Source of the DNA: an uncultured Gammaproteobacteria bacterium
GTDB taxonomy: Bacteria; Patescibacteriota; Patescibacteriia; UBA10025; JAHIVO01
DNA length: 64,000 nucleotides
Assembly: GCA_964415025.1 (NCBI GenBank)
Contig: CAYPXF010000001.1
Span: 78,629-142,628 of the forward strand
Direction: 5' to 3'
Within the stretch, counting starts at the first letter, position 1. Each line of letters opens with the position of its first letter. Made by a program: the position numbers and the translations under genes. This document shows positions 10,104 through 50,378 of this stretch, piece by piece. The notes beneath the pieces are model-generated. The model was not told the DNA's origin, ran no database searches, and saw nothing but the letters and a program-made list of their open reading frames with translations.

Positions 10104-11903
10104 TTAGCTTTTTGACTTTCTAGTTTTTCCGTACTTCGTAACTGCCCATAAATACATTAATGAATTTTTGATATATGTATTCATATGCATAACAATTTTT
10201 TTGATTGCCATGATATCCTGCACATTATAGGAGCTCTGTTTATTGATCGCCGCTATTACTCCTAATAATTCATTATTTGAAATAACGGGTATCAACAGGG
10301 AAATACTATGGTCAGCCATGGCTTTTTTAATTGCTTGAAAATAATCTTTCGGTATCCCATTTTGATAATATTGTGCATAGCTGGGAATCTCGCTAAATAC
10401 TAATATATTGCCGGTACGCACTAAATATTCTGTCAAATAACTATTATTATTCAGAATTAATGTATCAGCTTCATGAGATGGCATCTGAAAAGAGCTATAT
10501 ACAATTGCTCTTCGAGCTTCATGTTTGAGATACAGCGAGATATGTTCAGCTTTAAGCAAGTGCTGTACCTGGGAAGTAAAAGCATCTAAATCATCAATAA
10601 ATTTATTATAAACGTTACTATGTACTCCCGACGCAGATAACCGCTTGCTGTAGCTATTATCTGTGCTCTGTTCCTGATTCAGAATTATTTCAGCACTAAT
10701 TTTTTTCTGCTTATTTATTTGATGAATATTATTTCGCAGGGGTCTACTGTTTTGTTTTTTTACAATACTATACTGGTGTTTAATTTTTGAAATCATCCCC
10801 TGTCTCAAAGCTTTATTTTGTGCTGGTGTAAAGGTAAATTTTTCATCCAGTTGTTCTGCTGCTTGCGTAAGTAACTTGTTATCAAAATATTTTATTTCAT
10901 CAGCAATCTCATTATTATCTGTCCGTACCAGTGCGACTTCATACCCAGCGCCGACCATTGCCTTATAACTTTCTAGATATACGTTAGCTCCAAAAATATA
11001 TAATTGCGGCTGGGGCGAATCACCCGCCGTAAATGTGAAAGACTTATCAAGAGTGTCATTATCTAAGAATTTTATCAGCTCTTGGAAACGTAACTGCAGT
11101 TCCTTGGCGGAATACCCCATCTGAATTAATAAATTTGACCGAGGCGTCAACATGCATCGCACCGTTATGTTATTTTTAACCAGTTTGCTGATCAGTTTTT
11201 GCTCCCGCTTGCAATAACAAGTTTGCCTGCTATTTGTTGCGACATCTTTATCCGAATGTGAAAAACAGGATAAGCCGGTATGTAATCGAAGTATATTATT
11301 ATGCTGTGACGGTCGTAGTAGCATATCAGCCCCTTTCTGCAACCATGCATATCTTTCTTCTTTCGAATGTATATAAAGCGGATAACGGCCGGTGGGATTC
11401 TTCTCTAGAGCCGTAGTAATAATTGATTTAATACTCTTATCTTTTTCCGCAAAAACTATTTTCCCGTCAAATTCGTCAATTGTTTCTATGAGGGCAGCGG
11501 CAGTTTGTCTGACGATATTACCGCAATAATTAAATCTAGATATTGAATCAAAATTCTGATATTCAGATACTAAATTATTACAAATATAGCTCCCCTTTGT
11601 TGATAAGCGTTTGTCTATTTTCCTGCGAAAAGCAATAATAATTTCCATAAGTTTTGGGGATACGGACTCGTTATCTTCAGCCGGTCCAAATATATGCGCT
11701 AAGATCATTTCGGCTGCCGCGATCGCGCCGCAACAGCGACTGCCATCCAGCCCACCACGCCGCAAACTATGCAGACCAGGGGACATAGAATCAAATGCCT
11801 TGGCTATGGCAATGCTGCATCCATAGTGTTCGCCATCATGATTTCCAAAATAGTAATCCTGTGATTTTTGAATGTATTGTTTGGAAATATTATCGATTGC
11901 CAT
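10104..11903 (-). CDS. C_GCAxxG_C_C-family domain protein with C-terminal GAF-like domain
   Basis: N-terminal HYGCSIAIAKAF...RCCGAIAAAEMIL matches the C-GCAxxG-C-C motif; C-terminal LLIPVISNNELLGVIAAINK is GAF-like. Confidence 0.55.
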   Translation of the reverse strand: MAIDNISKQYIQKSQDYYFGNHDGEHYGCSIAIAKAFDSMSPGLHSLRRGGLDGSRCCGAIAAAEMILAHIFGPAEDNESVSPKLMEIIIAFRRKIDKRLSTKGSYICNNLVSEYQNFDSISRFNYCGNIVRQTAAALIETIDEFDGKIVFAEKDKSIKSIITTALEKNPTGRYPLYIHSKEERYAWLQKGADMLLRPSQHNNILRLHTGLSCFSHSDKDVATNSRQTCYCKREQKLISKLVKNNITVRCMLTPRSNLLIQMGYSAKELQLRFQELIKFLDNDTLDKSFTFTAGDSPQPQLYIFGANVYLESYKAMVGAGYEVALVRTDNNEIADEIKYFDNKLLTQAAEQLDEKFTFTPAQNKALRQGMISKIKHQYSIVKKQNSRPLRNNIHQINKQKKISAEIILNQEQSTDNSYSKRLSASGVHSNVYNKFIDDLDAFTSQVQHLLKAEHISLYLKHEARRAIVYSSFQMPSHEADTLILNNNSYLTEYLVRTGNILVFSEIPSYAQYYQNGIPKDYFQAIKKAMADHSISLLIPVISNNELLGVIAAINKQSSYNVQDIMAIKKIVMHMNTYIKNSLMYLWAVTKYGKTRKSKS

Positions 11904-20946: not shown

Positions 20947-21414
20947 CTAAACCCCTAGGTCATCTAACGCCTCGGCAATATCACTTCCCTTTTTCTCCGT
21001 ACTGGTCTTATATTTATTCCAGGCGGCTTCATCCCAGATTTCCAGACGGTTATATAATCCAGCGATAACTGTTTTCTTTTTAATAGTGGCGTACGTGCGT
21101 AAATACTCCGGCACAATAATGCGGCCCTGCTTGTCTATTTCGCAATCCATAGCGCCGGCTAGCATCAGACGGGCAAAGGCACGGGTGTTAGCCTTGGAAA
21201 TAGGCAGCTTGGATAACTTTTCAGCGAGCGCTTCCCAATCCTTTTGCGGATACAAGAACAAACAGTTGTCCAGTCCCCTGGTCACTACTGCTCCCTTTGC
21301 CAGTTCATTACGAAATTTAACCGGAACAGCCAGTCTGCCTTTGCTGTCTATAGAATGATGGTACTCGCCGATGAACATTTGTTTGAATAAAAAATAGTCG
21401 CTAAAGTAGAGCAA
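20947..21414 (-). CDS. mraZ: transcriptional regulator MraZ (true start probably the ATG at 21378, giving MFIGEYHHSIDSKGRLAVP)
   Basis: two MraZ repeats, DSKGRLAVP and DKQGRIIVP; the ORF-track start is a TTG 36 nt upstream. Confidence 0.85.
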   Translation of the reverse strand: MLYFSDYFLFKQMFIGEYHHSIDSKGRLAVPVKFRNELAKGAVVTRGLDNCLFLYPQKDWEALAEKLSKLPISKANTRAFARLMLAGAMDCEIDKQGRIIVPEYLRTYATIKKKTVIAGLYNRLEIWDEAAWNKYKTSTEKKGSDIAEALDDLGV

Positions 21415-30552: not shown

Positions 30553-30590
30553 AAAAACCATCCGGACGTATTACTGGATGGTTTTTTGTT
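30553..30590. terminator. bidirectional terminator
   Basis: aaaaaccatccgg-acgtattac-tggatggtttttt. Confidence 0.45.
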
Positions 30591-30597
30591 TGGAAAT

Positions 30598-31068
30598 CTA
30601 TTTGAGGTTTACTTTGGCACCTGCTTCTTCGAGTTTTTTCTTCAGCTCTTCTGCTTCCTCTTTAGTCGCGCCTTCCTTGATAACCTTAGGAGCGCCATCG
30701 ACCATGTCTTTTGCTTCTTTCAGGCCTTTTTCCGTAATTTCGCGCACAACCTTAATCACGGCAATCTTGTTCGAGCCTGCTTCTGCCAGCTCGATGTCAA
30801 ACGAAGACTTCTCTTCGCCGCCTTCTTCACCGCCGCCAGCCGGAGCCGCGCCGGCAACCGCCACTGGCGCCTGGGCAGACACACCGAATTTATCTTCGAG
30901 TACTTTTACCAGTTCAGCCAGCTCCATCACGGTCAGCTTTTCGATCTGGTCTACCAAGTCCTTGAACTTGGCCGGGACTTCGGCAGCTTCCTTTTTTTCT
31001 TCTGCTGCGTCGTCTTTTTTATCCTCGGCTGCTTCTGGAGCAGCTTCCTTTTTTTCTTCGTCAGCCAT
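30598..31068 (-). CDS. rplL: 50S ribosomal protein L7/L12 with about 30-aa Lys/Glu/Ala-rich N-terminal extension
   Basis: core [24 protein letters not shown]...[26 protein letters not shown]...EEAGAKV. Confidence 0.9.
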
Positions 31069-31100
31069 AGTATTGATATGTTTACTTATTTATTAGTATA

Positions 31101-36301: not shown

Positions 36302-37036
36302 GTGCTGAAAATTGCACCAAAAACAAAAAGTAAAAACAAAATGAAAATCAAATTGTGGCGACGTTTTTTCGGTGTGGCGGCAGCCTGTTCCGGCATGCTG
36401 CTCCTGGCCTCCCCTGGAGTCGCCCAGACACAACCCATCACTCCGGACGATATCTATACCCGCATTAATAACGTGCGAGCTGTCAACCATCTCAATGCAT
36501 TATCCCGTAATGCCGCTCTGGCGCGCGCGGCCCACCTGCGTGCCGCTGATATGACTGCGCGTGGCTATTTTTCGCATACCAGTCCCGACGGTGACATGCC
36601 CTGGGACGTGGCGCTGCGGGCTGGCTATGACTATGAACTCATCGGCGAAAACCTGGCCATTGACTGGCTGCGTCCAGATGATGTCATCACTGCCTGGCTC
36701 GACAGTAGCACCCACCGTGAAAATATCATGAAGCCAGCGTATACTGAAACCGGCATTGCCGTCACCTGCCAGTCCGCTGGCTGCTTAATCGTCCAGCTGT
36801 TCGGTAACCGTGCTGCTATCGCACCGCCAACACCCCAACAAAATATTACGGTAGTAAAAGAGCCTTTCCCGGCTACTCCCAGTATACCAAATTCATCACC
36901 CGGAGAAAAATCTGCGGTTCTAGGCAGTACTATTATAAAACAGAACTCCCCTGTTTTGTCCGTGCGCGATCGCTACCCGAACTGCATTGCTTTTAGTTAT
37001 TACCCAGTCGCACTTGGAGTTTACATGTTGCAATAA
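36302..37036 (+). CDS. secreted CAP/SCP/PR-1-like domain protein
   Basis: signal peptide; YFSHTSPDG...GENLA...HRENIMKPAYTETGIAV. Confidence 0.7.
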   Translation: MLKIAPKTKSKNKMKIKLWRRFFGVAAACSGMLLLASPGVAQTQPITPDDIYTRINNVRAVNHLNALSRNAALARAAHLRAADMTARGYFSHTSPDGDMPWDVALRAGYDYELIGENLAIDWLRPDDVITAWLDSSTHRENIMKPAYTETGIAVTCQSAGCLIVQLFGNRAAIAPPTPQQNITVVKEPFPATPSIPNSSPGEKSAVLGSTIIKQNSPVLSVRDRYPNCIAFSYYPVALGVYMLQ

Positions 37037-37369: not shown

Positions 37370-37927
37370 GTGACAAACATGAAAAAAATTCTCGTATCCA
37401 TGCTTACCATTGCTTTTGTCGGCGCACTGTCTGTCGGTGCTACTAGCGCTGTATTTACCAGCCAGGCGACGGTAGAGGACAACACGTTCGCGACTGGTAC
37501 ACTCGAAGTACGGGTTAACGGTCAATCCAGCATCGACGGATTTGATTTTGACAATGCCGCACCAGGCGACTGCTATGACGGCCAGTTCACCGTCAATAAC
37601 TACGGTGCGCCATGGTTTGCCGGTCCGTCAACACTTGACGCCAACACCCTGACTGTCAGCGCCGTACAGGACGGCGGCAGTACCTATCTCTTCGATAAGC
37701 TGGAGATTGATGTCAACGCTAACCGCGGCTGGCCTACGGCCATGGACGTCTACGACGGCTCACTGTCTGGTCTGACCAGCGCTGATCTGCTAGCTCCGCG
37801 CTGGAGCAGTCTGGTTCCTGGTAATTCCGAGGATGTCTACTACGAAGTATGCCTCCCGGCTGACGCTGACGACTCATATCAGGGTCTGAGCACAACCTTT
37901 GATTTTATGGTTGATGCGACTACCTAG
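37370..37927 (+). CDS. TasA/camelysin-like secreted protein (SipW-cognate family)
   Basis: signal peptide then ATSAVFTSQATVEDNTFATGTLEV matching the TasA/CalY N-terminal signature (AxFxDxxxxxxxxFxxGTLxL); likely ATG start at 37379 with RBS AGGGGGTGA. Confidence 0.6.
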   Translation: MTNMKKILVSMLTIAFVGALSVGATSAVFTSQATVEDNTFATGTLEVRVNGQSSIDGFDFDNAAPGDCYDGQFTVNNYGAPWFAGPSTLDANTLTVSAVQDGGSTYLFDKLEIDVNANRGWPTAMDVYDGSLSGLTSADLLAPRWSSLVPGNSEDVYYEVCLPADADDSYQGLSTTFDFMVDATT

Positions 37928-37933
37928 TATGGG

Positions 37934-39304
37934 ATGAAGTCTTTTAGGCTGTTTATCCTGAAGATAAACAGCCACCTAAGGTTTTATAATATGAATCGTA
38001 ATCCACTGACTAACAAACGTGCCAGAAAAAAAATCATACAAAACACAGTCAATGTGGTGGTGCTGTTTGTGTTTGTCATCGCTCTCCTTATCGTCATGTC
38101 GCACGCGGGATTTGCCGGCATGAAGGTGCTGTCCGTGCAGTCGGGGTCAATGTCCCCCACCATTCCCACCGGCAACCTCGTTTTTGTTACTCCCAGTGAT
38201 TCGTACGAGGTAAATGATATCATTACCTTCCGATCGTCGGGCGAGCGCGAACTCATCACGCACCGCATCGTATCTGCCGATCCGCAGTCAGCCGAACCGC
38301 AGTTCCAGACACAGGGTGATGCAAATGATGTGGCTGATTCATATACCGTACCCCAGCGCGGTATAGTCGGTAAAGTCAGACTGTCCCTGCCGCTGCTGGG
38401 ATATGTCATCAGTTTCGCCAAACAACCGCTAGGATTAACCCTGCTGATAATTATTCCCGGAACAATCATCATTTACGAAGAGTTGAAAAAAATCAGGCGC
38501 CAGTGGAATAAAATAAAACGTGCGAAAGGATCGGGGTATTCTGTCAGAACTGCTGCTGGTGAAGCATGGCAATCAAGCATACGTACAATTAAAAAGGCAC
38601 TGCGCAACGGCCGGGATAAATTTAATATGATTTTCTTCATACTATTTATCGGGACTCTGAGCTTAATTGCCGCACCTGCCGCTGCCATCACACAAACCGC
38701 AGGAGATTTACAGATAACATACCCGCATTCTCCCCTGTTCCAGGTATCCGATGCCGTACCGGACACCGCCATGACCCGTTCGATAAATGTTTTTAATACT
38801 GGAGACGAACCACATACAGTCGGACTCGTTATGGACAGTAATCCGTCCCTACCATTAAACCAGATACTACAAATCAATATCAGACATGATGCTGAATATA
38901 TTTACGGCTATGAGCTGGGTGGGCCTACTATTACCGATGCCATACACCAAGGAGAAATCCCCCTCTGGACACTAAACCCTCAGGAAACAGCTATTTTTCA
39001 TATATCCCTCTATCTGCCACACACTGCGAATAACCAGTTACAAGGCCAGGAAACGGTTTTTAACCTGGGTATTGGCTTTACCCAGACTGAAACAGCCCCA
39101 CTTAACCCTGTGGATAACCCATCAGATGGCCTGGTTTTAGGCGACCAAACGGAAAAACCCAAGCAAACCCCTACAAACGGTACAATACTGGGGATTGATA
39201 TAGAATTACCCCGCACTGGAGGAATATTATCCTTATCCACAGCCGCAGTCATTACCAGTATAAGTATATTATTTATCAGAAAAAACAATACTAAAAATTA
39301 CTAA
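37934..39304 (+). CDS. SipW-type signal peptidase I fused in frame to a second secreted domain ending in LPRTG sorting signal
   Basis: SVQSGSMSPTIPTGNLVFV (S26/SipW catalytic Ser), two TM helices; after residue about 225 a new hydrophobic segment MIFFILFIGTLSLIAAPAAA; C-terminus LPRTGG plus TM plus RKNNTKNY. Confidence 0.6.
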   Translation: MKSFRLFILKINSHLRFYNMNRNPLTNKRARKKIIQNTVNVVVLFVFVIALLIVMSHAGFAGMKVLSVQSGSMSPTIPTGNLVFVTPSDSYEVNDIITFRSSGERELITHRIVSADPQSAEPQFQTQGDANDVADSYTVPQRGIVGKVRLSLPLLGYVISFAKQPLGLTLLIIIPGTIIIYEELKKIRRQWNKIKRAKGSGYSVRTAAGEAWQSSIRTIKKALRNGRDKFNMIFFILFIGTLSLIAAPAAAITQTAGDLQITYPHSPLFQVSDAVPDTAMTRSINVFNTGDEPHTVGLVMDSNPSLPLNQILQINIRHDAEYIYGYELGGPTITDAIHQGEIPLWTLNPQETAIFHISLYLPHTANNQLQGQETVFNLGIGFTQTETAPLNPVDNPSDGLVLGDQTEKPKQTPTNGTILGIDIELPRTGGILSLSTAAVITSISILFIRKNNTKNY

Positions 39305-39321
39305 TTGCTCGTTTTAACCCC

Positions 39322-39349
39322 TTGACAAAAATACTATTTTTGCTAAGAT
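39322..39349 (+). promoter_or_regulatory. sigma70-like promoter TTGACA-16-TAAGAT
   Basis: 39322 ttgaca, 39344 taagat. Confidence 0.35.
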
Positions 39350-39697
39350 AGGTAGAACACAAAACAAAAAGTAGATATTGACAAAAACAAGCCAAAAATA
39401 CCAAAATACTATCGCACCTTAGGAGAATAACGCACTTTTGTACAAATAACATTTGGAGGAATGTTAAAAGCCAACATTGAGTTATAAAAAGGAGGAAACT
39501 CAAGGAAAAATAAAAAAAATCAGCACAACCCAGTCGCAATTCTCAATTTTTTGAAGCTATAAAACAGCTGATTTATGCCTTATTTAAAATTTTGTAACTT
39601 AGTGTTGGCTTTTTTTGTTTGCTTAGCAAAATTTACAAGCCGAAAAATACTACCCAATAATACAAATTCGGCGATGAAAATTATACTAAGCAAACAA

Positions 39698-39796
39698 TCC
39701 CGCTGCAGCCGAGCAATGCGAGGCGGATAGCGGGATAGCAAGCTTATTCACAACCCGAGCAAAAGCGAGGGGTCGTACAGAACCGAGCAAAAGCGA
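39698..39796 (+). promoter_or_regulatory. three direct repeats CCGAGCAA(A/T)RGCGA plus GC hairpin upstream of the adhesin gene
   Basis: repeats at 39709, 39754, 39782; hairpin atcccgct...agcgggat 39698-39736. Confidence 0.4.
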
Positions 39797-39860
39797 AAAA
39801 ATCGCGCTCAAATAACAAATATTTATATATATTTTAGAAAATAACTAATCAAACAAGTAT

Positions 39861-42800
39861 ATGAGTCTAAACAACCTTATTTCCGTGAAAACACGCCAGG
39901 CCCTGTCAAAAGGCCTGCATGTTGTCGCACTCACTGTCCTGGTCCTGAATATGTCCATGGTCGGTGTGTTTGCTGTACCGCAGGCTGCTGCAGCCAGCAC
40001 TCCCGGTGAAAGCGCTGGATTAACAGTCAGCTCTGGAGTTTGCCCAGAAGGTGACGTCAAATTAGAGGCTGACGCAGTAACGTATGAGGACACAGAAGGT
40101 AGTGCTACTATCAGCTATCATCAGGGTGATGAGCATAACTATGTTACTTGGGAAGCAACAACCGGCTATACTATCACCGGCGTCTGCCTCAAGTACGGCA
40201 CTACGCTCGACAATCCTGATCCAGCAGACGGTCAGGCCGGTCCATATGACCATGATATCAGCCACGTCGTGTTGCACACAGCTGAAGATGGACCAGTATT
40301 GCCTGATCCAGTGCGTAATGAACTTCCCCAGGCATGCGGTATGCCGATTGAAGTCATGATGGTGATTGACAGATCCGGCAGTATGGATGATGCCGGCGGC
40401 GGTGAGCCGCTCGCCTCGGTCAAGGCCGCGGCCAATGAATTCGTCAATCTGATGAATTTTGATCCGTCTGACCCTATTGCCACAGACCGCGCCGGCGTAA
40501 CTTCATATGATGGATATGCCACGCTGCGCCAAACATTGACCGATAACAGCACGGACGTTATCGATGCTATCAACGCTTTGCAGGCAGCAGGCAGTACTAA
40601 TATCGGAGAAGGCGTATTAACTGGCCAGAACGACCTCATGACTAACAAACGGATTGACCCCCTCGAAGCACAGCCAATCATGATAGTATTGTCAGATGGC
40701 GTAGCGAATCGATCAAGTAATGATACTTCTTGCGAATTATGGCCGAGCGAACATACTAACTGCACTATTGATGCTGTTGAACAGGCTAATGCTGCTAAAA
40801 CCGACGATACTGTAATTTTTACCATCGGCTATTTTACACAGGCTGTTGAAAACGCATATCCTGCATCAATCGCTTTAGCGCGCCAGACAATGAATTATAT
40901 GGCATCGCAGGAAGACTACTACTTCGAAACAGACTCAACCGCTAACCTCCAGGAAATTTATAATCAAATCCAGTTTGAGCTGTGCGATCCAAATCTTGAT
41001 TTCAGCAAATCAGTAGAAAACCTGACCCGCCCGGGCTATACGACAGAAGCCATGCCGGCACACGCTGGTGATGTGATAAAATATTCGCTGACGGCACAGA
41101 CGACTGATGTATGGCCGGCAGAGGATGTCGTAGTGGAAGATGATATTTCTGATATCCTGGAATACGCTACCGTAACAAATGCGTATGACGGTACTGTCAC
41201 CGGTGGCACAATCTCCTACCCGGCTGTTGATCTCGAGGGTAATGATTCAGTGACGAAATATTTCGAAGTTACTATCAACACTGCCGATACCTGGCCGACA
41301 GACGGTGATTTTGTCATGACAAACGTATACGGCAACAGCACCGAGGTATATATCGAGGAATTCGGCACGATCCACGGCTATAAATTCCATGACTATGACC
41401 GTGACGGCGAATGGGACGATAGCGAACCAGCTCTGAACGGTATCACTATCAAGCTCTACCAGGGCGATGCACTCATCGATGAAATGGTGACTGGCGACGG
41501 TGTAGCAGTTGGGTATTACCAATTTACCGACCTGCCAGCCGGTGATTACACAGTTATGGAAGTCAAGCCAAACGGCTATGTAAATACAACCCCCATTTCC
41601 GTGCCAGTAACAGTGTCAGCCAACAGCACCGAGCGTGTTGACTTTGGTAACGACGCTGCCGAATGTAAATTCGAACTGACGAAAGAAGCTACCGAATACG
41701 TTGATGTAAACGGTGCCATAACCTATACCCTGTTTTATGAAAACGGTAACTGCACCGGCGGCGGTGTTAAGGTAAAAGACTATATCCCCGACTATACGAC
41801 CTACGTGCCCGATTCCGCTAATCCGTCAGCTACGTTTGATGGGGAAAAAGTACTGTGGAATATCGGCACAGTCGAACCGGGTGAATTCGGCACGCTGACA
41901 TTTCAGGTAACTGCTGATGACCGCGACCAGTGCGGCGACTGGGAAATCCCCAATACCGCCTACTTCTGGGCAAATGAAATGCCGAACTGGGACGATAACT
42001 ATAGCAATACTGTCTATACCACCGTACACAAAAATTGTGAAGGCGACCTGACTGTTATTAAGAACGTCATCGGCGGTGAGATGGAAGGACACAACCCAGA
42101 TGATTGGACTATGGTAGCCAACGGCCCGGAATATAGAGAATTTGCAGGTAGTGCAACTGGCGTCACCCACACCTATGATGCTGGTTCATATGTGATCAAT
42201 GAAAAAGACGGTCCAGCTAACTACACGCTATCGTTTTCTGAAAACTGTGATGAATATGGAAATGTCACTATTGAACATAGTGATAACAAAACCTGCACCC
42301 TGACGAATGAGCGCGATACCGCTACCGTCAGAATAAATAAATTTGTCGAATATGCTGACGGCTCTACCAAGAAAAATCCGGATAACTGGTCATGGCAGTG
42401 GTCAAACCAGTATGCTGACGAGTCTGGTATTGCTGGCGGTATGCAACGAACCGTATTATCCAATGTCGAATACACCATTACCGAAGATACAACCCACTAC
42501 CCAGCTGATAACTACAATACGTCATGGGTGTGTTATCCTGCCGGTGGCGTAGGTATAGCTACTGATGCGAACAAGATGCAGCCGATGTTCCACACAGGCA
42601 CGTCATTTGACGTAACACTCGAAAAAGACCAGCATATTGTCTGCACCTTTACTAATATCCGCGAAACGACTGATATCACTTTTGATAAGGTTGTTGTTGG
42701 CAGCGACATGGCTGATGACAACTGGACGTTTGCTGTTGATGGTCAAGGTGATTACAAGGATGGTGATACTGTCACCCTCCCGACTAATGAAACATTTACC

Positions 42801-44144
42801 GTGACCGAGTCATCAGAGTATGACAATCTCTTCACCCTGACTAATGCGTCCGGTGCCTGCGAGCTCGATAACGGAGTAATCACACTGTATACAGACGGCC
42901 GCAGTGACACTTGCGTTGTCGAGAATACCCGTAATACCGGCGACCTGACCCTGGTAAAAGAAATCACCGCTTCAGAACTCAAACCAGGCGGCTTCATCAC
43001 GTACCAGCTGACCTATGCCAACAACGGCAATATTGATCTCACTGGGGTACAAATAACTGACGACTATCCGCAGCAATACGTGACGGTAACAAACAGCGGC
43101 ACCGGCGCTGACAACGGTGATACCATTGTCTGGAATATCGGCGATCTGCCGATTGATACCACAGGCACTGTTACCTATACCGTCAGTATCGATGAATCAA
43201 CACCGGCGGACACTGATATTATCAACATCGCCGTCATCACCTCTGACCAGACCGGTCCATATCAGGCCAGCGCTACTACAGAAATACCTGAAACGCCTGC
43301 CGGGCCCGTTCTGACCATCGATAAAACCGTCGGCGCTGACTTCGTCAATCCTGGCGATACAGCTACCTATACGGTTGTTATAGAAAATATTGGTGACACC
43401 ACCGCGACTAATGTCGAATTAACCGACCTCCTGCCTGTTGGCTTCACTTTTGTAGAATTCAGCACCGGCCTGTATACCTGGGAGCTCGGTGACCTGGCTC
43501 CAGAAGCGTCATTCACGCTGACATACGATGTCCTCATCGGTGAAGATGTTACTGTTGGTACGTATGAAAACTTTGCAGTTGCTTCTGCTGACAATCATCC
43601 TAACGTGCATGACCAGGCTTTGCTGGAAGTACGCGTCCCGACCGTCCTGGCCGAGGAAGCTGATCCAGTCCTGCAGATCGTCAAAACTGCTGATAAAGAA
43701 TTTATCAACAAAGGCGACAGCGTTACCTACACCGTAATTGTCACCAATGTCGGTGACGAGGATGCTGAGGCAGTCGCGCTCAACATCATGGTTCAGGACA
43801 TCATGCCGGCCGGCTTCACCTTTGAGGACGGTACGGTTACCAAAGTCTGGGCCCTGGGCGACCTGCGCGTCGGCGAATCACGGGAAATTTCCTACACCGG
43901 TATTTCCGATGACACGGTCCTGCCGGGTATGTACGAAAACCTGGCCGTAGCCTGGGCCGATAACCATGACAAGGTGGACGATTCAGTATCTGTCGAGGTA
44001 CGCGAACCCCAGGTGCTGGGCGAAGAACTGCCGACCACTGGCGGCTCCCTGCTCCACTACATCTACTTCATCGCTGCCGGACTGATTATCGCTTTCGCCG
44101 CCTTTGTTCTGAAACTCACCGCCTCTCCCCGCAGCCGGTCATAA
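39861..44144 (+). CDS. giant LPXTG-anchored surface protein: VWA domain, Cna-B/SdrD-B-like domain, multiple DUF11 (TIGR01451) repeats
   Basis: signal peptide; VWA MIDAS VIDRSGSMDD...GSTNIGEG...VLSDGVAN; DUF11 units such as ATYTVVIENIGDTTATNVELTDLLPVGFTFV; C-terminus LPTTGG plus TM plus RSRS. Confidence 0.8.
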   Translation: MSLNNLISVKTRQALSKGLHVVALTVLVLNMSMVGVFAVPQAAAASTPGESAGLTVSSGVCPEGDVKLEADAVTYEDTEGSATISYHQGDEHNYVTWEATTGYTITGVCLKYGTTLDNPDPADGQAGPYDHDISHVVLHTAEDGPVLPDPVRNELPQACGMPIEVMMVIDRSGSMDDAGGGEPLASVKAAANEFVNLMNFDPSDPIATDRAGVTSYDGYATLRQTLTDNSTDVIDAINALQAAGSTNIGEGVLTGQNDLMTNKRIDPLEAQPIMIVLSDGVANRSSNDTSCELWPSEHTNCTIDAVEQANAAKTDDTVIFTIGYFTQAVENAYPASIALARQTMNYMASQEDYYFETDSTANLQEIYNQIQFELCDPNLDFSKSVENLTRPGYTTEAMPAHAGDVIKYSLTAQTTDVWPAEDVVVEDDISDILEYATVTNAYDGTVTGGTISYPAVDLEGNDSVTKYFEVTINTADTWPTDGDFVMTNVYGNSTEVYIEEFGTIHGYKFHDYDRDGEWDDSEPALNGITIKLYQGDALIDEMVTGDGVAVGYYQFTDLPAGDYTVMEVKPNGYVNTTPISVPVTVSANSTERVDFGNDAAECKFELTKEATEYVDVNGAITYTLFYENGNCTGGGVKVKDYIPDYTTYVPDSANPSATFDGEKVLWNIGTVEPGEFGTLTFQVTADDRDQCGDWEIPNTAYFWANEMPNWDDNYSNTVYTTVHKNCEGDLTVIKNVIGGEMEGHNPDDWTMVANGPEYREFAGSATGVTHTYDAGSYVINEKDGPANYTLSFSENCDEYGNVTIEHSDNKTCTLTNERDTATVRINKFVEYADGSTKKNPDNWSWQWSNQYADESGIAGGMQRTVLSNVEYTITEDTTHYPADNYNTSWVCYPAGGVGIATDANKMQPMFHTGTSFDVTLEKDQHIVCTFTNIRETTDITFDKVVVGSDMADDNWTFAVDGQGDYKDGDTVTLPTNETFTVTESSEYDNLFTLTNASGACELDNGVITLYTDGRSDTCVVENTRNTGDLTLVKEITASELKPGGFITYQLTYANNGNIDLTGVQITDDYPQQYVTVTNSGTGADNGDTIVWNIGDLPIDTTGTVTYTVSIDESTPADTDIINIAVITSDQTGPYQASATTEIPETPAGPVLTIDKTVGADFVNPGDTATYTVVIENIGDTTATNVELTDLLPVGFTFVEFSTGLYTWELGDLAPEASFTLTYDVLIGEDVTVGTYENFAVASADNHPNVHDQALLEVRVPTVLAEEADPVLQIVKTADKEFINKGDSVTYTVIVTNVGDEDAEAVALNIMVQDIMPAGFTFEDGTVTKVWALGDLRVGESREISYTGISDDTVLPGMYENLAVAWADNHDKVDDSVSVEVREPQVLGEELPTTGGSLLHYIYFIAAGLIIAFAAFVLKLTASPRSRS

Positions 44145-44304: not shown

Positions 44305-44655
44305 TCACAAAAACTCCCGGCAAATCCTCTCGATAACACCTCGCATGTTTTCATACACGTCTTCATTCCTGAACCGCAAAAATCGTATGCCAAACTGTTC
44401 TATGTACTTCTGTCGCTGGTAATCATATTCTTCCCGGCCAATGTGCGACGGGCCGTCAACTTCTATAGCCAATTTCAGTTTAGGACAATAAAAATCAACT
44501 ATATAATTCCCCACGCTGTACTGCCGGCGGAATTTGTAGCCGTATAACCGCTTATTCCGCAGCTGCGCCCACAGTAGAGCCTCGGCCTGCGGGGACTCCT
44601 TCCGCAGTTTCTTACGTCGTTTTTTCATTGACTGCTTGTTGAATGCGAATGTCAT
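44305..44655 (-). CDS. DUF559 / Vsr-like endonuclease domain protein
   Basis: YIVDFYCPKLKLAIEVDGPSH...FGIRFLRFRNEDV (E-x-D-G-x2-H Vsr-like core). Confidence 0.7.
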   Translation of the reverse strand: MTFAFNKQSMKKRRKKLRKESPQAEALLWAQLRNKRLYGYKFRRQYSVGNYIVDFYCPKLKLAIEVDGPSHIGREEYDYQRQKYIEQFGIRFLRFRNEDVYENMRGVIERICREFL

Positions 44656-45171: not shown

Positions 45172-48100
45172 ATGAACAAATCTATGCACAAGCACACATT
45201 ACGCTTGAGCAAGCTAGCAACCCCCCTCCTGGTCGTGACGGTGGCGGTTTTTGGTTTTGCTCTCACCGCCCACGCGGATGATGCGGGTAGCGGCGCAATT
45301 TGGACTACTACCGGTAGCTGTGGTGATCCGCAAAATGTAAACCAATACCATACAGGAGAAACCGTGTTCATTAATGGTGCAGGCTTTTCTACTAACCATG
45401 AGTATGATTGGGTTATTAGAAAACCTGGGGTAAACGGTGATATTCTTATCAATGGACAACACACTACTGATGCAGATGGCAAATTTTGTTTTCCTGCAGT
45501 AAGCCTCGACGCCGGTGCAAATGGTGTGTACCAGGTTAAATTTGGTGAAGTCAAGGGAGATAATTTTAAGGTTGTCTCTATCCCCCGCTATACTTCTGGG
45601 GATACCTGCCCACGCGGCTATACACCAGAATTATTGGACTCATACGACATCAACAGTACAGACAAAAACGGAGTAAATTTTGGCGTTACTGCAGGTAATA
45701 CATATCTATTCCATGCCTCCGGCTGGTATAATGCTAGCAATAATATTATGGCAGATGCGGGATACTCTTGGAACCAAAGTGGCCCTTTACCCGACTATGG
45801 TATTAATGGAACGGGTAGCAACTATGGTGCACACGCCTTACTTGGAGACTTGGGTGATGGAGTTGGGGTTGTTATGTGGGGCGTATTCAATGCACAAAAC
45901 ATATATGACTTTTACTATCAACCCACTACGAACAATATACAATTCCTTATAGGTGATCGATACAGCGATTGGTTCAATACCCCTTGGGACAATCAAAAAG
46001 GAATGAAAGATGATAATTCAGGCTTATTAACTCTTGATGTTTACGAATGTCAGCCTGAACCAATGAAAATAGTTGCTCACAAGATTACCTGTGAAGACTA
46101 CGCTGATTTACCTGAATGGGGAGTCGGAGCAGCAGATATTGATAAAGATACTGCTCAAAATTGGGTTACTTCCCATAAGAGCTGTGATTTCGCTAAAGAC
46201 TGGAAATTTGAGTGGGGTGACCACAATGCTAAGAACCCCGGCGATACACATTACGGTACAGCAGCAGAGGCAGGAAAGAAAGGATGGCACACCTTCGGTC
46301 CTACCGACAGCAATGGCATGGCCACGACAACCATAGATGACATACAGAAGAATTTCTGGTTCCGTGAAGTTTTACAGCTTGGCTATATCCCCTTCACTTA
46401 TGGCCCTGAAGGGAACCGGAATACCAATTCACTTTCAGCACAGGTTTATTGTAAATCAGATGTACTAAACTACGATAACTACGATCGCATTGATGATCCT
46501 CACTACGGAGAAACAATATATTGTGTTGCATTCAATGCTGAAGTCCCGGATCCATCTGTCATCCAGGGTCGCAAATACGATGACGTGAATGGCAACGGCT
46601 ACCATGATTCAAATGACACCGAAACACGTATGGATGGCTGGACTACCCGCCTCTACGACGAAAACTGGAACAGTGTCGAAGATATGAACAGCAATAACAG
46701 TATGGTCACCGGCGACACCGGCAATCCCGGTCAGTTTGCATTCGACGTCATGCCTGGCACTTATAATGTTTGCGAGGTTATGCAGAATGAGTGGCAGCAG
46801 ACCGGTCCCCTAGTTGGTACTCATCCGGTGAATTTCGATCTCCAGGACCAGAATGATGCCACCGCGGTCGCTAACCAATCCGGCATGCATGATGAGGGTT
46901 CGACCTGCTGGCAAGTGGAAATTGATGCTCAAGGCGGCGAATCGTACGGCTGGCTGAAATTTGGTAACTACTATGCAGAATGTGGAAACAAAATAAAAGA
47001 TAGCGACGAAACGTGTGATGATGGCGCAATGAATGGCCAACCAGGATATTGTAACAATGAATGTACCGGAGTAACCGCGACAGATGAAAAGAAAATTCAG
47101 ATAAATAAAACCGTCGATCCGGCCATAGCAACTCACGGTGATACGATTACCTATACCATCACTGCTACTAACGCCGACGACACTGACACCTGTGATAATG
47201 CTACTTTAACCATTACTGATGATATAACTGATGTGCTCGCCGATGCCGTACTAGTAAGTACAGACCCGTCCGTTGTCCCGGATAACAATGTACTTACCTG
47301 GACGTTTGATAACGTATCTTGCGGTGACCCCAAAACAGCCACGGTAACTGTAGAAGTAACTAATGAGGCCTTTGACGGTGCTGTTGTTGAAAATATCGCC
47401 TGGGTCATGGATCAGAATGAAAATCAGGCCACTTCTAAACAGGTAGAAACAGCTATTTCAGTCGACAGTCCCGTGCTCGAGTTAACCAAAACAGCTGCCG
47501 AGGGCCCCTTTAACCCCGGTCAGACTGTCGAGTACACCGTGACAGTGACGAACAATGGCACGGCTGACGCGACAAACGTCGTGCTGACTGATGCATTACC
47601 GGACAATATGATGTTCCAGGACGGCACGACGACCAAAACCTGGACCTGGGATATAATAGCGGTAGGCACCAGCCAAGAGGCTGCCTATACCGCCATCATC
47701 GATGATGAAGCAACTGCCAATACATATACAAATAATGCAACTGTGACGGCAGATAGTCTCGATCCAGTCAGTGCCAGCGCTGATACAGAGGTGATTGTAC
47801 CGATCGTGCTTGGCGATGCCGCGCCGTTCTTCAACATCACAAAAACGGCTGACAAAGATTTCGCCGCACCAGGAGAAACTGTTGCCTATACAGTAGTTGT
47901 CACTAATGACAGCGATGTTGACGCACTCAACACTGTCATGACAGATACATTACCGATCGGCTTTGTATTCAAAGGCAGTACTGACACGGTCAAAAACTGG
48001 GACCTGGGCACCATGGCCGCTGGCCAGAGCCGCACTATTACCTATGACGTCACCATTGACCAGGCAGCTGGCGAAGATATGTATACCAACACGGTAACGG

Positions 48101-48300
48101 TGACAGCTAATGACGCTGGACTGGTATCAGACACGGCCACTGTCGAGGTACGCAAACCGGCCGTGCTCGGCGCTGAAACAGAGGAAACTGTATTACCGGT
48201 CACCGGCGGTTCCCTGCTCCACGTGCTCTATGTGCTGGGTGCCGGACTGATCGTCGTGTTTTCCGGATTTATCCTAAGGCTCACCTCGTCCCGAGGTTAA
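45172..48300 (+). CDS. giant LPXTG-anchored surface protein: Cna-B/SdrD-B-like domain, Cys-rich repeat, DUF11 repeats
   Basis: signal peptide; CGNKIKDSDETCDDGAMNGQPGYCNNEC Cys-rich repeat; DUF11 units (ATYTVVVTNDSDVDALNTVMTDTLPIGFVF); C-terminus LPVTGG plus TM plus SSRG. Confidence 0.8.
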   Translation: MNKSMHKHTLRLSKLATPLLVVTVAVFGFALTAHADDAGSGAIWTTTGSCGDPQNVNQYHTGETVFINGAGFSTNHEYDWVIRKPGVNGDILINGQHTTDADGKFCFPAVSLDAGANGVYQVKFGEVKGDNFKVVSIPRYTSGDTCPRGYTPELLDSYDINSTDKNGVNFGVTAGNTYLFHASGWYNASNNIMADAGYSWNQSGPLPDYGINGTGSNYGAHALLGDLGDGVGVVMWGVFNAQNIYDFYYQPTTNNIQFLIGDRYSDWFNTPWDNQKGMKDDNSGLLTLDVYECQPEPMKIVAHKITCEDYADLPEWGVGAADIDKDTAQNWVTSHKSCDFAKDWKFEWGDHNAKNPGDTHYGTAAEAGKKGWHTFGPTDSNGMATTTIDDIQKNFWFREVLQLGYIPFTYGPEGNRNTNSLSAQVYCKSDVLNYDNYDRIDDPHYGETIYCVAFNAEVPDPSVIQGRKYDDVNGNGYHDSNDTETRMDGWTTRLYDENWNSVEDMNSNNSMVTGDTGNPGQFAFDVMPGTYNVCEVMQNEWQQTGPLVGTHPVNFDLQDQNDATAVANQSGMHDEGSTCWQVEIDAQGGESYGWLKFGNYYAECGNKIKDSDETCDDGAMNGQPGYCNNECTGVTATDEKKIQINKTVDPAIATHGDTITYTITATNADDTDTCDNATLTITDDITDVLADAVLVSTDPSVVPDNNVLTWTFDNVSCGDPKTATVTVEVTNEAFDGAVVENIAWVMDQNENQATSKQVETAISVDSPVLELTKTAAEGPFNPGQTVEYTVTVTNNGTADATNVVLTDALPDNMMFQDGTTTKTWTWDIIAVGTSQEAAYTAIIDDEATANTYTNNATVTADSLDPVSASADTEVIVPIVLGDAAPFFNITKTADKDFAAPGETVAYTVVVTNDSDVDALNTVMTDTLPIGFVFKGSTDTVKNWDLGTMAAGQSRTITYDVTIDQAAGEDMYTNTVTVTANDAGLVSDTATVEVRKPAVLGAETEETVLPVTGGSLLHVLYVLGAGLIVVFSGFILRLTSSRG

Positions 48301-48782: not shown

Positions 48783-50378
48783 ATGACTGCTAAACAAGCA
48801 CAAAAAAATATCAGCCATCATTGTAAACGTGCGGGCGAGCATACAAAACATTTTTTCATACCGCACCACGGCAACAACCACCATCCCCACGCTTTGCGAC
48901 CACCGGCACTACGTTTGTACGCCGTGTCAATTATTGGTATCAAATTGTTTGTTAGTGCTTTTCTCTTTGCCGCGTACCCGTCGACAGGTGAATTCGCGAC
49001 CATTGCCCGGGCTGAAATACTAAACCTAACCAATAGCTCCCGAGCTGCTGCCGGCGTGGCTGCGTTATCTATGAGTACGACCCTGAACCAGGCTGCCCAG
49101 CTCAAGGCCGAGCATATGCTGGCACACGGCTATTTTGCCCATACAGCGCCAGACGGCACCAAGCCATGGTCTTTTCTCAAACAGGCCGGCTACGACTATA
49201 CTGCCGCGGGTGAAAATTTGGCTATGGACTTTACCGAGGCCAGCACAGTGCACGCCGCCTTTATGAACAGCCCGTCGCATAAGAAAAATATCATGAACGC
49301 CAAGTACACTGAAATGGGTGTGGCCGTACTCGAGGGTGAGCTAAACGGTACGCAGACGATTATTTTAGTCGAGTTTTTCGGTACACCGTACCAATCTCCT
49401 GCTACTCCGGTAGCCGAACCCGAGCCAACGCCAGCTCCCGAACCTGAACCAGTCCCTACTCCTGCGCCCGAGCCTGCCCCAACACCAGAACCTACTCCTG
49501 CGCCTGAACCTACTCCTGCGCCTGAACCTACTCCGGCGCCCGAGCCAGAACCCGAGCCAGCACCTACTCCTGCTCCCCGGCCAACAGCGGCTGAAATCGC
49601 GGCTAATCCAATTAACTACCAGGCCGAGCTCTCTGACCAGAGCGCTGAACAGCTGGGTATCAAAACACTGGAGGAATTTGACTACTGGGTAGAGTTTAAA
49701 AACACCGGCACGGCCACTTGGACTAAAAGCGGCGAGTATTATGTCGCCCTGAACGTAACCAACCCGGCTGGCCGACACAGCGAGTTTGAGCATGAAACCT
49801 GGGTCGAATACTATCGTCCGGCCGTATTACTACAGTCTTCAGCTGCCCCGGGAGAGGTTGGCCGGTTCGAATTCACGCTCCAGGCACCAGAAGAGGCCGG
49901 TACGTACGAAGAATCGTTTGGTCTGGTAGCAGAAGACCTGGCCTGGATTGACGGCGGTTCGATCGAATTGCCTATCGTAGTCGTGGCTCCGCCCGAAAAA
50001 AGCACTGAAACCGAAGTAGAGGTGGTTAATACCCCGCTCTCTACCTCGCCTGACCAACCTGACACCCCGTCTGAACCAACACCCACAATAGAACCACTGG
50101 CCACTGAAGAAGCCGAGGGGCCTATCGTGGAATCACAGTCATTTGACAGCGACGAACAAAGTTTTGTGGCGAAAATTATCGAATACTCGCATCAATACTA
50201 CGCAATTATACTGGCTTTTCTGATAATCGCGCTCGGCATCAATATATTTGTTGATGTCCGCGTGCAGCACGCTCATGTTATTGCGCAGACACTGATCGTC
50301 ATCATTATAGCGTCTGCCGCTATTTTCCTGCACCCGCACTTCCTGGAACAGCTGCCAAAAGCCTTTAAAATCATATAA
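48783..50378 (+). CDS. surface protein: CAP/SCP domain, Pro-rich (PAPEPTP) linker, Ig-like beta-sandwich domain, C-terminal TM anchor
   Basis: HGYFAHTAPDG...GENLA...HKKNIMNAKYTEMGVAV; linker PAPEPEPVPTPAPEPAPTPEPTPAPEP...; C-terminal hydrophobic helices. Confidence 0.65.
   Translation: MTAKQAQKNISHHCKRAGEHTKHFFIPHHGNNHHPHALRPPALRLYAVSIIGIKLFVSAFLFAAYPSTGEFATIARAEILNLTNSSRAAAGVAALSMSTTLNQAAQLKAEHMLAHGYFAHTAPDGTKPWSFLKQAGYDYTAAGENLAMDFTEASTVHAAFMNSPSHKKNIMNAKYTEMGVAVLEGELNGTQTIILVEFFGTPYQSPATPVAEPEPTPAPEPEPVPTPAPEPAPTPEPTPAPEPTPAPEPTPAPEPEPEPAPTPAPRPTAAEIAANPINYQAELSDQSAEQLGIKTLEEFDYWVEFKNTGTATWTKSGEYYVALNVTNPAGRHSEFEHETWVEYYRPAVLLQSSAAPGEVGRFEFTLQAPEEAGTYEESFGLVAEDLAWIDGGSIELPIVVVAPPEKSTETEVEVVNTPLSTSPDQPDTPSEPTPTIEPLATEEAEGPIVESQSFDSDEQSFVAKIIEYSHQYYAIILAFLIIALGINIFVDVRVQHAHVIAQTLIVIIIASAAIFLHPHFLEQLPKAFKII

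Follow-up and report, generated by a model that had tools for sequence, protein, structure and literature searches.

SipW-Dependent Fiber Systems

Dedicated SipW-type signal peptidases are known in Bacillus, Clostridium, and archaea, and both the start of TasA-like fibers and their retention at the cell surface are still debated. In Bacillus subtilis, tapA, sipW, and tasA are three separate genes of one tapA-sipW-tasA locus. The donor strand of TasA consists of the first 11 residues of the mature protein, which enter the next subunit of the fiber (PMC9674648). The sipW-bsaA-bsaB-bsaC locus of Clostridium perfringens encodes the VWA protein BsaC, some strains have an LPXTG-bearing bsaB-like gene (PMC11580942), and BsaA polymerizes through intermolecular isopeptide bonds (PMC7395162, PMC11580942). 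In the haloarchaeon Haloarcula hispanica, TafD is required for processing of the Tat-fimbria subunit TafA (PMC11821415). The present analysis concerns a window of 64,000 nucleotides (nt) of contig CAYPXF010000001.1 (the whole stretch of DNA that was analyzed) from a probable Candidate Phyla Radiation (CPR; Patescibacteria) bacterium, in which one open reading frame (ORF) at positions 37934 to 39304 almost certainly encodes a real and conserved fusion of a SipW-type signal peptidase to a TasA-like protein. The fusion appears to join two genes of a tasA/bsa-type fiber operon, and on balance we favor the reading that it is a lineage-specific fusion whose precursor is cut after its third hydrophobic segment and releases a sortase-anchored base subunit. 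The protein is a rearrangement of known parts for which architecture and homology are solid, and the cleavage step is one that we infer from conserved sequence features.

The locus resembles the C. perfringens bsa operon in its set of SipW, a TasA-like candidate major subunit, a second TasA-like protein (with LPXTG in some C. perfringens strains), and a VWA protein (PMC7395162, PMC11580942), whereas in C. perfringens all of these genes are separate and in another order with a sortase gene alongside; no sortase was found in the window. Compared with tapA-sipW-tasA of B. subtilis, the minor partner is here fused to the peptidase, and whereas TapA, a presumed strand donor, is no LPXTG-bearing protein of the TasA fold, this partner carries a sortase-type signal and would have a very short mature N-terminus. 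TafD is likewise a signal peptidase I dedicated to a donor-strand-type fiber, with four predicted membrane segments and two extracytoplasmic domains, and it differs in being archaeal, in acting on Tat-pathway substrates, and in having no reported LPXTG or internal cleavage site, the likeness being one of description only (PMC11821415). No description of a SipW-TasA-like fusion architecture was found in the literature searched, the closest published remark being the one on TafD.

A Conserved Fusion in One Reading Frame

The ORF ran uninterrupted on the forward strand from an ATG at 37934 to the stop codon at 39302-39304 (456 codons from the first ATG; the interval 37934 to 39304 includes the stop). 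A first-pass annotation made from the sequence alone had reported that no stop codon separates the two halves, and the signal-peptide-like segment, second domain, and LPRTG-hydrophobic segment-RKNNTKNY ending that it described were all found in one frame with the peptidase. It had offered a self-processing fusion, a gene fusion, and a sequencing frameshift masking two genes as alternatives, and comparison with orthologous loci, which have no stop codon at the junction, spoke for the gene fusion and against the frameshift. Four other fused proteins from different samples, P0002 (452 amino acids, aa), P0003 (449 aa), P0004 (436 aa), and P0025 (450 aa), had 37-42% identity and displayed invariant columns throughout both halves in one continuous frame, which indicates that both halves are constrained. 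The junction DNA has diverged among the loci while the frame was kept, and a frameshift or assembly error was therefore excluded as the source of the architecture.

An indel introduced during sequencing or assembly, having removed the stop between two adjacent genes, would agree with the separate genes of most relatives. A second assembly (L001, from run SRR7048225) matched the window at 21,314 of 21,314 bases across the junction and possibly derives from the same sample and reads, such that it is not independent proof. Against such an error stand the four further fused proteins, which come from different samples and assemblers and share the frame across the diverged junction, the linker between the halves, which is kept as protein (KEKIW.AL.KHRK), and the finding that neither half occurs in an alternative frame; the error is thus given next to no probability. 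Conservation also extended to the surroundings of the gene. A TasA-like gene (183-207 aa) preceded the fusion at all three loci for which upstream DNA was read (L003/L004, L085, and L088). The wider neighborhood was comparable in L085, the only one with a contig long enough, and its gene order was that of the window: rplL, rplJ, an unannotated gene, and genes for an amino-acid kinase, YceG, a nucleotidyl transferase, and a methyltransferase, followed by the TasA-like gene and the fusion.

The probable true coding sequence is shorter than the ORF and extends from 37991 to 39304 on the forward strand. The Met codon at 37991 (MNRNPL...) corresponds to the first residue of the database copy P0001 (437 aa, 100% identical) and of all orthologs, and an AAGG sequence lies 12 nt 5' of this ATG, with no comparable site before the ATG at 37934. 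Position 37991 was taken as the start because the database copy and the orthologs begin there and AAGG lies upstream, and the first 19 codons of the 456-codon ORF are probably not translated. Residue numbers refer to the 437-aa protein that begins at this Met unless otherwise stated. In this numbering, the fusion protein has four hydrophobic segments and two predicted extracytoplasmic domains.

Signal Peptidase Domain

The peptidase half matched TIGR02228 (archaeal/ER-type signal peptidase I) with 107.8 bits against a cutoff of 51.85 over residues 34-185 of the 456-aa ORF, and the SipW-like elements noted in the first-pass annotation (a membrane segment, the SGSMSP motif, and a C-terminal membrane segment) were all present. 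The equivalog model of Bacillus SipW (NF046067) scored 106.9 bits, under its cutoff of 190, and on these profile scores the peptidase half is a family relative of Bacillus SipW and not a Bacillus ortholog. Its nearest named SipW relatives were encoded in genomes of Candidatus Pacebacteria, Paceibacterota, Parcubacteria, and Saccharibacteria, and the gene content is likewise that expected of a CPR bacterium. The catalytic domain, predicted to be extracytoplasmic, spans 38114 to 38404 (+ strand) and has its Ser in SGSMSP (Ser53, 38147-38149) and a His instead of a Lys in THRI (His91, 38261-38263). Both motifs were intact, a GDANDxxD motif was present beside them, and S53, H91, D110, and D116 were invariant in an alignment of 15 SipW sequences and kept in the fused orthologs as well. 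A Foldseek search with the model of the whole protein gave human SEC11A/C (7p2p and 7p2q) as the best solved match (E = 2.7e-6).

The catalytic domain is flanked by two hydrophobic segments. The first (38045 to 38113, + strand; about residues 19-41) is an N-in signal anchor according to hydropathy and charge count, comes after a basic N-terminus (5 Lys/Arg among 13 residues), and lies within a helix of the AlphaFold2 model (residues 5-39). The second (38405 to 38476, + strand; about residues 139-162 by hydropathy and model) is the usual C-terminal membrane segment of SipW-type peptidases. Together with the positive-inside pattern, hydropathy thus predicts an N-terminal anchor, a second membrane segment, and a catalytic domain outside the membrane. 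The fold also matched that of Streptococcus pyogenes SipA/LepA (PDB 4n31, E = 8.7e-4), a protein of the signal-peptidase fold whose gene belongs to a sortase-dependent pilus locus. As far as is known, SipA has none of the catalytic residues and is a chaperone-like factor, unlike the fusion protein, which keeps Ser53 and His91 and is of the ER/archaeal type.

TasA-Like Domain

The second domain (38687 to 39085, + strand; residues 233 to about 365) was compared with the product of the gene directly upstream (37379 to 37927, + strand), a TasA/camelysin-like protein of 182 aa that matched Peptidase_M73 (PF12389; 31.1 bits against 22.5) and TIGR04088 (28.5 bits against 19). This upstream protein has a SipW-dependent-type signal peptide (...GATSA|VFTSQATVEDNTFATGTLEV) and is, from these profile matches, a candidate for the major fiber subunit and SipW substrate. 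The C-terminal domain alone matched no Pfam family, and PF12389 was matched by only 3 of 48 members of the C-terminal domain family. When the C-terminal halves of four fused proteins were combined into a profile, hhalign aligned it with the upstream protein over 124 columns (probability 93.4%, E = 2.5e-7), and a local hmmsearch also linked the C-terminal domain to it (E = 4e-5). In a sequence search of PDB chains the domain profile retrieved nothing meaningful (best E = 0.7), so a fold comparison was needed, and this gave a TasA-type jelly-roll/beta-sandwich fold. By homology to the upstream protein and by predicted fold, the C-terminal domain is a member of the TasA superfamily, and the earlier suggestion of a tapA/tasA-like partner was borne out on the TasA side.

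The alignment also places the two N-termini relative to each other, since hhalign pairs TAGDL of the C-terminal domain with ATGTL of the upstream protein. Only 3 residues would precede the first conserved strand of the C-terminal domain (before TAGDLQI) compared to 13 in the upstream protein (from TSA|VF to ATGTLEV), such that the predicted mature N-terminus of the C-terminal domain is about 10 residues shorter than that of its upstream paralog. As this is the region that supplies the donor strand in TasA, the anchored subunit may accept a strand without donating one.

Membrane Topology and Predicted Cleavage

The distribution of basic residues supported the same topology in all five fused proteins. 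In the window protein, the three loops predicted to lie inside had 26-38 Lys/Arg per 100 residues, compared to 3-7 in both large domains. All five fused proteins were predicted to have four hydrophobic segments; across the five, the large domains contained 3-14 Lys plus Arg per 100 residues, and the N-terminus, the segment 2-3 loop, and the tail at the C-terminus contained 20-67. From this pattern and the positive-inside rule both domains were placed outside the membrane. The basic linker between the halves, predicted to be cytoplasmic (38477 to 38626, + strand; residues 163-212 by charge count; model helix 189-226), contains most of the computed loop 156-209 with its 14 Lys/Arg in 54 residues. 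In the unfused SipW P0216, the cytoplasmic tail is similar to this linker, whose KEKIW.AL.KHRK motif was conserved in the alignment of fused orthologs. The precursor would accordingly be inserted with four membrane segments in the order basic N-terminus inside, segment 1, peptidase outside, segment 2, linker inside, segment 3, TasA-like domain outside, spacer, LPRTG, segment 4, and tail inside.

The third hydrophobic segment (MIFFILFIGTLSLIAAPAAA; 38627 to 38686, + strand; residues 213-232) has the character of an internal signal peptide. Its alignment with the signal peptides at the N-termini of standalone members of the C-terminal domain family held in every column, the basic n-region (KKHRK in the orthologs) included, and the segment would be the former signal peptide of the downstream gene. 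Its AAPAAA c-region predicts a cut after Ala232, between 38686 and 38687, which would yield a fragment with the N-terminus ITQTAGDLQITYPHSPLFQVSDAVPDTAMTR. The junctions of the fused proteins (PAAA|ITQTAGDL, SVLA|FTKTSGDL, SALA|VTVTAGDL, STYA|VTEMSGDL, and SAFA|ITKTSGDL) and those of standalone members (SAFA|VTKTSGDL, PVYA|VTETTGDL, SVYA|ITKTSGDL, and KTFA|ITKTSGDL) have a common form, xxA|(V/I)T(K/E)T(S/A)GDL. All five fused proteins have Ala at -1 and A, V, or T at -3 (AxA, VxA, AxA, TxA, and AxA). In the model, the helix that continues to residue 226 gives way to a stretch of lower confidence (227-230), with Ile233 as the beginning of the first strand. Cleavage after Ala232 is proposed because of the conservation of the junction and of its -3 and -1 positions together with the break in the model at 227-230.

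The most likely reading is that a signal peptidase would cut the precursor after Ala232 (AAA|ITQ), with the peptidase domain of the same chain or of a neighboring copy as the candidate enzyme. After the cut, a SipW with three membrane segments would stay in the membrane and the TasA-like subunit would be freed. The fusion may instead never be cut and remain throughout an enzyme with four membrane segments, its TasA-like domain tethered by the active site as a docking, chaperone, or nucleation platform. This has a parallel in haloarchaeal TafD, with its four predicted membrane segments and second outside domain (PMC11821415), and in TapA, which nucleates and chaperones TasA (PMC9674648), and according to the model the 50-residue linker would let both outside domains sit side by side. 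A plain anchor would need neither the small -3/-1 residues nor the standalone-type mature N-terminus that all five fused proteins keep, and other SipW fusions retain SipW-type cleavage motifs, one of them above the curated cutoff. Moreover, if a sortase acts on LPRTG, it would pin an uncleaved peptidase to the wall, and we know of no precedent for a sortase substrate tied to a polytopic enzyme, which counts against this alternative. A permanently uncut protein is possible on these grounds and is regarded as rather doubtful.

The two halves could also be made separately by an internal translation start before segment 3, as two overlapping cistrons in the same frame, and the first-pass annotation had pointed to the Met of MIFF as such a start. 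An ATG (Met213, 38627) does stand at the beginning of segment 3 in the window, and the L085 ortholog P0025 has AAGGAG, 9 nt, and ATG within its linker (about 10601-10630), from which a signal peptide MALKKHRKLIIL...SAFA|ITKT would be read. Met213 of the window protein is Leu or Ile in the other four fused proteins, so that it is unlikely to be a general start, and a signal peptide that begins at Met213 would have no basic n-region. In addition, the L085 site is missing in the window and in L003, and a full-length product would remain in any case, and separate synthesis of the halves is considered very improbable. The AAGGAG-ATG of L085 may be left over from an earlier gene start, or it may be an active start confined to that lineage.

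Sorting Signal and Proposed Fiber Base

The TasA-like domain is followed by a Pro/Thr/Asp-rich spacer (39086 to 39205, + strand; about residues 366-405) that is predicted to be disordered, with model confidence below 50 and a length that varies among the orthologs, and that is likely a stalk through the wall. The LPRTG pentapeptide (39206 to 39220, + strand; residues 406-410), read directly from the sequence, is followed by hydrophobic segment 4 and the basic tail RKNNTKNY (39221 to 39301, + strand), which make up the remainder of a three-part sorting signal. With LPRTG, 19 hydrophobic residues, and RKNNTKNY, the C-terminus has all three parts of the definition. The pentapeptide was kept in four of the five fused proteins, as LPITG in P0002 and P0025 and LPETG in P0004. 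From this composition, anchoring of the fusion product by a sortase is plausible. In the favored scheme, sortase would link the freed TasA-like subunit to the cell wall through LPRTG on its spacer of about 40 residues, and the anchored subunit would be an acceptor-only base that holds fibers of the upstream protein. The natural fusion to the peptidase suggests that the LPXTG-bearing TasA-fold subunit is the partner nearest the wall.

Several observations weigh against this chain of cleavage, anchoring, and base function, for which cis or trans action of the enzyme, sortase attachment, and the role of the subunit are as conditional as the cut that sequence conservation suggests. TIGR04088, the model of the SipW-dependent-type signal peptide, had no match to segment 3 even at E <= 10, and since the site is a generic AxA, the enzyme could be the fused SipW, another copy, or a housekeeping peptidase. 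The -3/-1 conservation was seen in only five fused sequences, and shared ancestry could be partly behind it. In the AlphaFold2 model of the whole protein (mean confidence 80.3) the interdomain confidence was low (predicted template modeling score, pTM, 0.54). As to anchoring, P0003 has lost LPxTG and has a degenerate SVKVG instead, and the curated LPXTG anchor model TIGR01167 scored the fusion protein at 12.5 bits, below its cutoff of 15.9; the two neighboring LPxTGG proteins, at 14.5 and 14.9 bits, were also just below it. No sortase (TLxTC motif) was found within the 64 kb of the window or at the CPR loci that were retrieved, and among all retrieved loci TLxTC sortase matches occurred only in Clostridium and Lachnospiraceae. 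Finally, the short mature N-terminus is common to the whole standalone family, and an acceptor-only character would therefore be a family property and not a product of the fusion.

Rarity and Evolution of the Fusion

The first-pass annotation had called the architecture unusual, and this held, as relatives of both halves were mostly separate genes. An exhaustive search with the C-terminal domain profile (E <= 1e-3) retrieved 2,103 cluster representatives; in nearly all of the 150 matches listed, the domain starts within the first 10-30 residues behind a signal peptide of its own, and only P0001, P0004, and P0025 among these 150 have it after residue 210. On the peptidase side, nearly all of the best 120 SipW relatives in a large protein collection had 165-220 aa. 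A full-length alignment scan of GTDB species representatives gave 80 SipW loci, most of which encode 170-220 aa with two hydrophobic segments, and no full-length fused ortholog. An alignment scan of JGI metagenome contigs with the C-terminal domain gave only 3 loci, two of them already among those found.

The standalone counterpart of the second half is represented by P0026-P0032 (229-264 aa), which consist of a signal peptide, the domain, a spacer, an LPxTG-like motif (LPITG, LPLSG, LPKTG, LPLTG, or FPETG), a hydrophobic stretch, and a basic tail. At the P0029 locus, which lies between rplJ and an amino-acid kinase gene in a neighborhood like that of the window, the standalone anchor is encoded apart from a 206-aa peptidase, three other genes lying between the two. 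The closest unfused SipW was P0216 (201 aa, about 55% identical), which is encoded behind a TasA-like gene and is not itself followed by an anchor gene. Its position was examined in a rough neighbor-joining tree without support values, in which P0216 was sister to the P0001-P0004 group and fused and unfused SipW forms were interleaved. P0223 (234 aa), identical in two samples (L093 224-928 and L094 205-909), ends just past KGKIWTALTKHRKIF, a linker motif typical of the fused family, is followed by a gene for a lamin-tail-domain protein with a SipW-type signal peptide, and looks from this motif like a fusion that later lost its second half. As standalone relatives dominate, the P0029 genes are separate, and the two forms are interleaved in the tree, the available sequences suggest that the fusion is derived, rare, and apparently reversible. 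As a separate observation, the last 40 residues of standalone P0027 and fused P0002 are nearly identical (ELPITGDQLLSYSLLLISITI...KLLQKHNSR.KK) while the remaining domain is far more diverged, and this shared end may stem from recombination or from a recent paralog.

The interleaving of fused and unfused forms could also arise if the fusion is selectively neutral, being tolerated since signal-peptide cleavage separates the parts, conferring no new function, and being open to loss. The mixture of unfused and truncated relatives with fused ones in the rough tree (P0216 as sister of P0001-P0004) and the resemblance of P0223 to a fusion lost later agree with neutrality. The persistence of the fused state to about 40% identity with both halves constrained and the repeated fusion of SipW to other passengers, which hints at an advantage, argue against it, as does the fact that the supporting tree was built by neighbor joining without support values. 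Neutrality is consequently held to be improbable.

Other SipW Fusions

Fusions of SipW to other passengers shared the layout of SipW, basic linker, signal-peptide-like third hydrophobic segment, and passenger. P0005, P0006, and P0008 combine SipW with a lamin-tail domain (PF00932) behind a GSFFSD-type motif, and P0226, P0228, and P0282 have acidic low-complexity tails. The C-terminus of P0010 is formed by LPATGG with a hydrophobic stretch and a basic tail, and TIGR04089 SipW-substrate genes were present at the P0010 locus. In a Saccharibacteria genome, a 484-aa SipW (L007 6908-8362) that follows two TasA-like genes has an acidic C-terminal tail and no LPXTG; its internal segment (GGTKAYFNDVEVS) matched TIGR04088 (21.0 bits against a cutoff of 19) and aligned with the signal peptide of a neighboring TasA-like gene (E = 7e-6). 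Several of these other fusions carry a SipW-type A(Y/F)F.D.E motif and not the generic AxA site. By hhalign, the passengers of P0010 and L007 did not align significantly with the C-terminal domain family (E = 0.031 and 0.29, respectively), and the likeness of these two fusions to that of the window is one of layout. The other SipW fusions lay on different branches of the rough tree and look like independent events with the same layout.

No paper describing the fusion of SipW to varied passenger domains was found in the literature searched. We tentatively suggest, as a wider possibility that the sequences leave well short of likely, that SipW fused to its own substrate is a recurrent self-processing class in CPR, Actinobacteria, and perhaps haloarchaea (TafD), in which each enzyme would cut one cis substrate intramolecularly. 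If so, the signal peptide, once released, would remain in the membrane as a third segment with a possible part in gating or positioning the active site; in the family of the window protein, exactly one wall-anchored fiber base would be made beside every peptidase, and fiber assembly would start where subunits are processed. A single polypeptide with enzyme, cleavage site, and product would also be a simple test system for cis action of a membrane signal peptidase. Two further arrangements were observed among the relatives of the two halves. In L002 (3-242), a standalone anchor gene lies 5 nt behind the end of a gene with an apparent lamin-tail domain at its C-terminus, and the peptidase relatives P0013-P0019 have a long polytopic N-terminal membrane extension, i.e., a fusion on the other side of the enzyme.

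Genomic Neighborhood

The fusion gene is followed by further genes for surface proteins. A protein of 1,427 aa (39861 to 44144, + strand) with VWA, SdrD_B/SpaA-like, and four DUF11 domains (CLIPPER) ends in LPTTGG, a hydrophobic stretch, and a basic tail, and is a candidate adhesin of the same locus. A second DUF11-repeat protein (45172 to 48300, + strand; 1,042 aa, three DUF11) ends in LPVTGG, again with a hydrophobic stretch and basic tail, such that three LPxTGG proteins lie within about 10 kb, the fusion counted. The fusion itself points to TasA-type fiber loci combined with sortase-type signals in CPR bacteria, whose surface structures probably matter for host attachment.

Between the fusion gene and the VWA gene lies an AT-rich gap of 556 nt (39305-39860) with promoter-like sites at 39322-39349 and 39378-39407. 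No terminator-like site was found on the forward strand of this gap, and promoter and terminator counts of the region were no higher than in shuffled sequence, so an operon structure was not established from them. A small DUF559/MTES_1575 endonuclease-like gene (44305-44655, - strand) lies between the two adhesin genes. Upstream, a ribosomal protein L10 leader (RF00557; 31622-31780, - strand; 48.5 bits against a gathering score of 44) was the sole Rfam match in the window, and a low-complexity ORF of 172 aa (SSSFFFSSS...; 30578-31096, + strand) antisense to rplL is almost certainly spurious. The island of surface-protein genes is flanked by secreted proteins with a CAP domain (cysteine-rich secretory protein family) at 36341-37036 and 48783-50378.

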